64,000 nucleotides of DNA from Escherichia coli (GTDB lineage Bacteria; Pseudomonadota; Gammaproteobacteria; Enterobacterales; Enterobacteriaceae), in assembly GCF_003334385.1 (NCBI RefSeq), contig NZ_QOWN01000002.1; one strand, written 5' to 3'. Numbering within the stretch: the stretch's first letter is position 1; each line of letters begins with the position of its first letter. The notes under the pieces are model-generated. The model searched no databases, was not told the origin of the DNA, and worked only from the letters and a program-made list of their open reading frames with translations. This document shows, piece after piece, positions 3,239-3,802 of this stretch. Made by a program: the position numbers and the translations under genes.

Positions 3239-3802
3239 TTATTCATTGATCAGTTTCTGCGCCAACGCAATGACATGATCTACCTCTTCCGGCGTCAGGC
3301 TGCCGTCCTTTGCCCACTGAATTTGCCCGGCTTTATTCAGCACCAGAATGGTTGAACTCTGCTCCGGCAAGCGCCAGGCAACGCGTCCCTGTCCATTGCC
3401 GTCAATAACGAATTGCGCCCACGGATAGCGGCGTTTATTTTTTTCGATTTTGCCAACAACAAAATAGCCAGTACCAAAGATGGCATCATCGGTGTTCACA
3501 ATGGTGGTGGGCTGAAAACGATCCTGCGGAAAGTTTGCCGCTTCAACCGCTTTAATTAACAGTGAGTTCTTTTTCTTCGCCGACTTACGCCCGGCGATAT
3601 ACTGAATAATGCGGACTTTTCCCGCTAATTGTGTGCTGTTCCACTTTTGGTAGTGAATTTCGTCGTCGCTATTCAGAAGCAGCTCGCCGCCTTCCTGGAT
3701 ATAAACAGGGGTAACCGTTTTGCCAGTGACGAAATTGTGTGCCTGCACACCCGGGGCTAAGAGCATGATAATCAACGCAATAATCAAACGAGATGACATC
3801 AT
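3239..3802 (-). CDS. YtfJ-family periplasmic protein (signal peptide)
   Basis: 187 aa. N-terminal signal peptide MMSSRLIIALIIMLLAPGVQA. Overall resemblance to E. coli YtfJ (TTIVNTDDAI, QWAKDGSLT). SD ggag upstream of the start. Confidence 0.6.
   Translation of the reverse strand: MMSSRLIIALIIMLLAPGVQAHNFVTGKTVTPVYIQEGGELLLNSDDEIHYQKWNSTQLAGKVRIIQYIAGRKSAKKKNSLLIKAVEAANFPQDRFQPTTIVNTDDAIFGTGYFVVGKIEKNKRRYPWAQFVIDGNGQGRVAWRLPEQSSTILVLNKAGQIQWAKDGSLTPEEVDHVIALAQKLINE

Follow-up and report, generated by a model that had tools for sequence, protein, structure and literature searches.

A cysteine-less YtfJ paralog with a thioredoxin fold is encoded in the enterobacterial sphingolipid gene cluster

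The gene ytfJ2 lies within a 64,000-nucleotide stretch of the Escherichia coli chromosome (contig NZ_QOWN01000002.1 of assembly GCF_003334385.1; here, the window) and encodes a second member of the YtfJ family, a stable constituent of the enterobacterial sphingolipid gene cluster. The gene was already annotated as a member of the YtfJ family, and published work already depicts the locus; the new findings are that YtfJ2 represents a distinct, locus-specific paralogous clade, possesses a thioredoxin fold devoid of cysteine, and travels with a flippase gene and a gene coding for a CHAD-like protein. The role that we favor, with a probability of roughly 0.45, is that of a redox-inactive periplasmic binding or accessory factor of the sphingolipid pathway, which would bind either the polar, probably phosphorylated, head group of the lipid or a protein partner.

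The product of ytfJ2, 187 amino acids from the first ATG and 186 from the likelier start at position 3799, matches the Pfam family YtfJ_HI0045 (PF09695) with E=2e-59, its residues 26 to 183 covering model positions 3 to 159 of 160, and scores 212.1 bits against the NCBIfam model TIGR01626, which has a curated cutoff of 151.1. These matches are far beyond chance, and YtfJ_HI0045 was the only family detected in the Pfam scan of the protein, with no match to OstA or LptC. The second ATG (3799) is also the start used by RefSeq, where the product of the identical locus is named "YtfJ family protein," and the spacing to a Shine-Dalgarno GGAG at positions 3805 to 3808 suits this codon better. The N terminus, MMSSRLIIALIIMLLAPGVQA followed after the predicted cut by HNF, has a charged n-region and a hydrophobic core of 14 residues, together with the cleavage motif VQA. 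The residues at the cleavage site, A21 and H22, are invariant among close homologs; a hydrophobic N-terminal leader is found in nearly all members of the family, and YtfJ2 has the size typical of them (∼180 to 200 amino acids). Because the protein contains no cysteine, it has no lipobox, and a soluble product, exported by the Sec pathway to the periplasm, is therefore predicted from the sequence. YtfJ2 is the only protein of the cluster for which both solubility and a periplasmic location are predicted. The first-pass annotation of the window had proposed a secreted YtfJ paralog on the strength of a signal peptide and the motifs TTIVNTDDAI (residues 99 to 108) and QWAKDGSLT (residues 162 to 170); all of these are present and, together with the Pfam and TIGR01626 matches, bear the proposal out.

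YtfJ2 is a true paralog, that is, a second copy distinct from the housekeeping YtfJ. Over its full length it is 54% identical to YtfJ of strain K-12 (b4216; same family as Haemophilus HI0045), with which it shares the length, the signal peptide, the motifs AGRxSAK, TTIVNxDDA, and WAKDG, and the conserved core residues. Of 5426 complete E. coli genomes, 5418 have canonical ytfJ, one of them being CFSAN061772, which contains the window at 100% identity, and 4147 have ytfJ2; both genes are present side by side in E. coli, Klebsiella indica, Citrobacter amalonaticus, and other Escherichia species. In a neighbor-joining tree, canonical YtfJ is a monophyletic group whose sister clade comprises most YtfJ2 sequences, those from Rosenbergiella and from the locus L090 being more divergent. 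In contrast to canonical ytfJ, a stand-alone gene located between ytfK and cysQ, the genes of the separate YtfJ2 clade are encoded in the sphingolipid locus only. Seven positions consistently differ between the two clades (K77, F96, P98, K118, K121, A129, and T151 in YtfJ2), three of which are fixed as lysine in YtfJ2 (K77, K118, and K121), and the median charge of the mature protein is +5 for YtfJ2 versus +2 for canonical YtfJ. The ratio of nonsynonymous to synonymous substitution rates (dN/dS) is 0.09-0.18 for ytfJ2 and 0.03-0.10 for canonical ytfJ, which for ytfJ2 is clear purifying selection, with YtfJ2 evolving two to three times faster. The block around the canonical gene (cpdB, cysQ, ytfJ, ytfK, paeA, msrA, tamA, and tamB) is itself conserved (L002, corresponding to K-12 positions 4430000-4445000, and L091); it contains many periplasmic and phosphate-related genes and lies near the TamAB system, from which no functional link can be drawn.

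The association of ytfJ2 with the sphingolipid locus was traced with a genome scan based on a narrow alignment (A3) and one genome per species, which covered Enterobacterales only and in which 80 of 348 relatives were kept. These 80 loci and four more (L003-L006) were annotated by tblastn with the window proteins and the canonical neighbors, and L090 was added separately. The 84 loci fell into two classes with no intermediates: 43 were of the sphingolipid-locus type and 41 showed the canonical context (ytfK, cysQ, paeA, msrA, and cpdB). Including L090, all 44 of 44 non-canonical YtfJ homologs are encoded inside an spt/lptF2G2/yghQRST locus, in at least 16 enterobacterial genera, among them Escherichia, Citrobacter, Pseudocitrobacter, Hafnia, Klebsiella (K. 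indica), Serratia, Mangrovibacter, Shimwellia, Pantoea, Erwinia, Rahnella, Sodalis, and Rosenbergiella, and these loci sometimes sit in different chromosomal neighborhoods. The order yghQ-hyp274-ytfJ2 is preserved in 42 of the 43 assessable loci, Sodalis being the exception. The pair lptF2-lptG2 directly follows ytfJ2 in 32 of 44 loci and is detached in the other 12: in two metagenome-assembled genomes and in Rosenbergiella it is located upstream of yghQ in divergent orientation, in Rahnella, Pantoea coffeiphila, and an Erwinia sp. it occupies the far end of the cluster, and it is otherwise separated in Sodalis and in an Erwinia metagenome-assembled genome whose contig shows none. The constant neighbors of ytfJ2 are yghQ and hyp274, not lptF2.

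Within the window, the gap from ytfJ2 to the hyp274 stop codon is 8 nucleotides and that from the ytfJ2 stop codon to the start of lptF2 is 30 nucleotides, which agrees with the placement of the gene directly upstream of an LptF-like gene in the first-pass annotation. The gene appears to be co-transcribed with yghQ, hyp274, and, usually, lptF2 and lptG2. The homolog in L090, only 42% identical, is part of a complete locus in which the start and stop codons of ytfJ2 overlap both neighbors. Synteny down to this level of identity, tight or overlapping gene junctions, and purifying selection indicate that the position of ytfJ2 reflects a real link to the locus. From the conserved position and purifying selection it follows that YtfJ2 belongs functionally to the cluster. 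Seven distant members of the family, by comparison, are encoded by stand-alone genes in unrelated contexts with no recurring partner, and their neighborhoods therefore provide no clue to function.

The AlphaFold2 model of YtfJ2, built from a 99-sequence alignment, is confident, with a predicted local distance difference test score (pLDDT) of 95.4 and a predicted template modeling score (pTM) of 0.88. The order of its secondary-structure elements is that of a TlpA/ResA-like thioredoxin fold, with a beta-alpha-beta-alpha-beta-beta-alpha core and an N-terminal hairpin. A Foldseek search against the Protein Data Bank gave 521 matches at E<=1e-3; every one of the 50 listed (ResA, CcmG/DsbE, Etrx, peroxiredoxins, and Sco) has a thioredoxin fold. 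At the sequence level, the resemblance is faint: a single-sequence search of YtfJ2 against solved structures yielded nothing significant, and the profile comparison reached E ∼0.03 to ResA and StoA. YtfJ2 differs from TlpA, ResA, CcmG (DsbE), and the peroxiredoxins, to which it is 9-17% identical, in that it lacks the CxxC motif, the peroxidatic cysteine, and the cis-proline. Because the hhalign alignment with ResA covered the C-terminal half only, the order of the secondary-structure elements in the model was used to locate the position of the CxxC motif; this position is occupied by A70-G71-R72-K73-S74-A75-K76, and the position of the cis-proline, mapped in the same way, by S149-S150. There is thus neither a CxxC motif nor a peroxidatic cysteine at the N terminus of helix alpha1, as expected of a thiol-disulfide oxidoreductase or peroxiredoxin, and, given that the protein has no cysteine at all, it can perform no thiol-disulfide chemistry. 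The YtfJ family as a whole is cysteine-poor. A redox partnership of YtfJ2 with CerR, the epimerase-family protein of the locus, was considered and ruled out: YtfJ2 has no cysteine, and E. coli CerR starts with a Rossmann motif and has no signal peptide.

What the family has kept at the former active site is polar. The residues conserved family-wide are G39, Y51, W54, K62, A70, R72, N79, N103, D105/D106, G110, P127, D134, G137, W143, and G167, and all of them are retained in both paralogs. At a mean family identity of 28%, N103 is conserved in 90% of sequences, D106 in 77%, R72 in 75%, and K62 in 70%. In YtfJ2, the conserved polar residues that gather at the former active site are R72, K76, N79, N103, D105, D106, and S149/S150.

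The window is E. coli chromosome, and many complete genomes are 100% identical to it over bases 1-8400; in 4096 of the 5426 complete E. coli genomes, 80% or more of these bases are present. The window contains part of what the literature identifies as the E. coli form of the sphingolipid locus of Proteobacteria (yghO-yghT) (Table 1). In strain NCTC86, where the locus is identical, RefSeq annotates on one strand yghO, aasR (fatty acyl-AMP ligase), cerR (NAD-dependent epimerase family), acpR, and spt, and on the other yghS, yghR, a "lipopolysaccharide biosynthesis protein" (yghQ), a hypothetical protein, the YtfJ family protein, lptF, and lptG, with yghT, pitB, and gss beyond the opposite-strand genes. 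The rest of the biosynthetic operon (aasR, cerR, and acpR) and yghO sit just outside the window. LptF2 can be aligned over its whole length with LptF chains of solved structure and therefore has kept its periplasmic domain; the locus encodes no LptB-like ATP-binding cassette ATPase. YghR, YghS, and YghT are P-loop paralogs (GxDGxGKST) with sub-threshold similarity to dTMP kinases, although RefSeq names two of them "dTMP kinase," and they are conserved in all sphingolipid loci compared. In an exploratory mirror-tree analysis, YghT distances co-varied with those of LptF2/LptG2 (partial r 0.5-0.6). The hairpin between the convergent spt and lptG2 genes is, judged from its sequence, probably a bidirectional terminator that closes both operons. 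It alone stood out in the promoter and terminator scan, in which counts did not exceed those in shuffled sequence; inside the minus-strand run, only weak terminator-like matches were found (15 over both scanned strands, about as many as in shuffled sequence). A PADLOC search for defense systems returned nothing relevant.

Table 1. Features of ytfJ2 and its surroundings, in window coordinates
Feature	Position	Strand	Basis or remark
ytfJ2, YtfJ-family (PF09695) paralog	3239..3802	-	Open reading frame, Pfam, TIGR01626, RefSeq annotation, 54% identity to K-12 YtfJ
ytfJ2 stop codon	3239-3241	-	
Predicted Sec-type signal peptide, residues 1-21, cut after VQA	3740..3802	-	Read from sequence
Mature thioredoxin-fold (TlpA/ResA-like) domain without cysteine	3242..3739	-	
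A7 homopolymer inside ytfJ2, frameshift site	3438..3444	-	
hyp274, cytoplasmic all-helical protein, CHAD-like fold	3811..4635	-	Directly upstream of ytfJ2, overlaps yghQ stop codon
yghQ, MOP/Wzx-type flippase (Polysacc_synt)	4635..5984	-	Same family as Caulobacter CC_1166, candidate sphingolipid flippase
lptF2, LptF paralog	2138..3208	-	318 bits, curated LptF cutoff 230
lptG2, LptG paralog	1062..2141	-	308 bits, cutoff 240; start overlaps lptF2 end
yghR and yghS, dTMP kinase-like P-loop proteins	6030..7533	-	Upstream on same strand; scores below curated cutoffs
yghT, third P-loop paralog	7707..8399	+	Divergent
spt, 3' part (serine palmitoyltransferase)	1..1027	+	Convergent with lptG2
16-bp GC-rich perfect hairpin between spt and lptG2	1030..1064	.	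Consensus scan only

The sphingolipid locus is decaying in some E. coli strains. Frameshift alleles at the A7 homopolymer of ytfJ2, present in some E. coli assemblies, encode products of 153-154 amino acids ("...KIEKINAAIRG..."), and one frameshift allele occurs on 120 contigs, a 5.44-Mb genome among them; YtfJ2 is therefore inactivated in at least one E. coli lineage. Two protein clusters from E. coli assemblies (P0019 and P0121) represent deletion-fusion alleles: in one, residues 1-143 of YtfJ2 are joined to the C terminus of LptG2 with loss of lptF2, and in the other, the N terminus of PitB is joined to YtfJ2 with loss of yghT through hyp274. Strain K-12 presumably lost the segment next to an IS5 element. 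Allelic divergence is uneven as well. Between bases 1-8400 and the same locus of another E. coli (L007), YtfJ2, Hyp274, and CerR are 90-91% identical at the protein level and the neighboring genes 95-99%, and ytfJ2 alleles at 90-95% nucleotide identity occur in 540 E. coli genomes. The low identity of the YtfJ2, Hyp274, and CerR alleles could be due to relaxed constraint, old allelic lineages, or recombination.

The enterobacterial locus can be compared with that of Caulobacter crescentus (CC_1152-CC_1168), with which it has in common aasR, cerR, acpR, spt, a Polysacc_synt-type flippase, lptF2, and lptG2; Caulobacter cerS is equated with yghO by locus position only. The enterobacterial version lacks the Caulobacter CPG2 head-group genes and lptC2 and instead contains yghR/S/T, the CHAD-like hyp274, and ytfJ2. 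A catalog of the 17-gene Caulobacter locus includes the Polysacc_synt-type flippase CC_1166 and no YtfJ-family gene (PMC11324152, main and S1 text). The Caulobacter LptF2 and LptG2 paralogs form a complex that uses the housekeeping LptB, and their genes can be deleted only if the anionic sphingolipid is not made; in the inner membrane, this lipid is toxic when stuck. An lptC2 deletion was obtained in spt or cpgB mutant backgrounds only (2026 preprint, doi 10.64898/2026.04.12.717747). The same study describes the periplasmic and outer-membrane steps of sphingolipid transport as unknown, reports no duplicates of LptA/D/E, restricts lptC2 to Caulobacter, and draws the locus of E. coli UTI89 without mention of YtfJ (doi 10.64898/2026.04.12.717747). 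The Spt, AcpR, and AasR proteins of E. coli BL21 are active (PMC9386255). On the product of the E. coli locus, the literature searched yielded only in vitro work on these three proteins and incidental mentions of yghQ; ytfJ2, hyp274, and yghR/S/T are not discussed in the literature found, nor did it contain data on a need for ytfJ2 in lipid synthesis or transport.

The presence of three P-loop kinase-like proteins and of Hyp274, with its CHAD-like, polyphosphate-binding fold, suggests a phosphorylated head group. With respect to ligand, timing, and partner, we infer that YtfJ2 would act in a non-redox manner at the periplasmic face of the inner membrane, where it would target either a membrane (protein) partner or the head group of the sphingolipid made by the cluster, which is polar and probably phosphorylated and anionic. 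It may do so after the lipid has been flipped by YghQ and before or during extraction by LptB2F2G2. The role would be tied to the enterobacterial-specific head-group module (YghR/S/T and Hyp274) rather than to the Lpt bridge, and LptF2/G2 would dock onto the housekeeping LptB, probably also onto LptC/LptA, as proposed for Caulobacter. A more specific version, in which YtfJ2 is the missing soluble periplasmic factor of sphingolipid export in Enterobacterales, binding the anionic head group once the lipid has been flipped and passing it to, or taking it from, LptB2F2G2, appears highly improbable. Several observations weigh against assigning YtfJ2 a binding role in the pathway. The location of the polar binding site derives from the general layout of thioredoxin-fold active sites combined with sequence conservation, and some of the conserved residues (D134, G137, and W143) correspond in alignment to structural motifs of TlpA-like proteins and may be non-functional. 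Together with cerR, ytfJ2 is the least constrained gene of the locus by dN/dS, and some E. coli lineages have lost it or carry it with a frameshift. Finally, the literature searched contained no description of the E. coli sphingolipid or its head group, and no function, ligand, partner, or phenotype for any YtfJ-family protein, either copy included, nor did it yield anything useful on YtfJ regulation.

From gene order, the first-pass annotation had suggested that YtfJ2 could have a substrate-receiving role analogous to that of LptC/LptA. For the sphingolipid, it would be a periplasmic receiver or chaperone that takes the lipid from LptB2F2G2 toward the outer membrane in place of LptC/LptA or Caulobacter LptC2. 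The likeness consists in YtfJ2 being extracytoplasmic and encoded beside genes for LptF/LptG-type permeases. In favor of the idea, YtfJ2 is predicted to be soluble and periplasmic and its gene directly precedes lptF2 in the majority of loci (32 of 44), LptC2 is absent from the enterobacterial locus, the periplasmic and outer-membrane steps were stated to be unknown, and the greater basicity of YtfJ2, compared with canonical YtfJ, would match an anionic lipid. However, YtfJ2 has no sequence or fold similarity to LptC or LptA. Its thioredoxin fold is not the beta-jellyroll needed to extend the LptF/LptG-LptC-LptA bridge; the Pfam scan, with no hit of the OstA or LptC hidden Markov models, and the AlphaFold2 model agree on this, and no LptA/LptC-, LolA-, or MlaC-type protein is among the Foldseek matches listed. 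The conserved site is polar or charged, and YtfJ2, whose signal peptide is cleavable, is predicted to be soluble and not membrane-anchored as in the Lpt comparison. Adjacency to lptF2 is not universal, the tightest linkage being to yghQ-hyp274; the ancestral paralog YtfJ is present in genomes without a second Lpt system, and LptF2/G2 work in Caulobacter, whose locus catalog has no YtfJ. Co-variation does not help the analogy either. Mirror-tree and partial Mantel analyses of YtfJ2 and LptG2 gave r 0.38-0.40 (permutation p ∼0.002), with the signal in the transmembrane part of LptG2; it vanishes once Rosenbergiella and L090 are removed, and with the periplasmic domain of LptF2, r is 0 or below. 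In view of the transmembrane location and the dependence on a long-branch lineage, the YtfJ2-LptG2 signal was rejected as evidence of contact. In the reading that we favor, YtfJ2 is not an element of the Lpt bridge, and no finding here shows it carrying lipid as LptA and LptC do. Gene order alone overstated the resemblance; the analogy is left unsupported rather than refuted, and a receiver function of YtfJ2 seems to us quite improbable.

Alternatively, YtfJ2 could act in the periplasm as an enzyme, such as a metal-dependent hydrolase or transferase, that matures or trims the head group after flipping by means of its Asn/Asp/Arg/Lys cluster. The strong conservation of N103, D106, R72, and K62 in so divergent a family, the placement of the conserved polar residues of YtfJ2 where beta1 and beta2 end, which is where proteins of the thioredoxin fold have their active sites, and the co-occurrence of ytfJ2 with the head-group genes (yghR/S/T and hyp274) rather than with lptF2G2 in general are all compatible with catalysis. 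Set against this, the structural neighbors listed include no thioredoxin-fold enzyme with such a cysteine-less site, no cofactor or metal motif was recognized in YtfJ2, and the canonical paralog would need a substrate in bacteria without sphingolipids, so that an enzymatic role appears unlikely. Conversely, YtfJ2 might perform the generic envelope function of YtfJ and merely travel with the locus, without a specific role in sphingolipid biology. The identity of the family-wide conserved residues in both paralogs fits such a passenger, as do the stand-alone genes of distant family members in varied contexts, the weakest constraint in the locus, and the existence of inactivated alleles. Yet the position of the gene in the operon has been kept across many genera, down to 42% identity and after rearrangement and relocation of whole clusters, both copies are retained side by side, seven clade-consistent differences separate them, and dN/dS is well below 1; we therefore doubt strongly that YtfJ2 is a mere traveler. 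The reading of YtfJ2 as a non-redox binding or accessory factor of the sphingolipid pathway is the one that we retain.

These findings place the YtfJ family, for the first time, in a defined pathway context. Roughly three in four complete E. coli genomes, those of laboratory-tractable strains among them, have a variant of the sphingolipid locus, and ytfJ2 is a cheap and direct genetic handle on the periplasmic step of sphingolipid export. If YtfJ2 indeed captures the head group and hands it over, it would represent a new structural class of periplasmic lipid-handling protein, and this would be the first function for the widespread YtfJ family.
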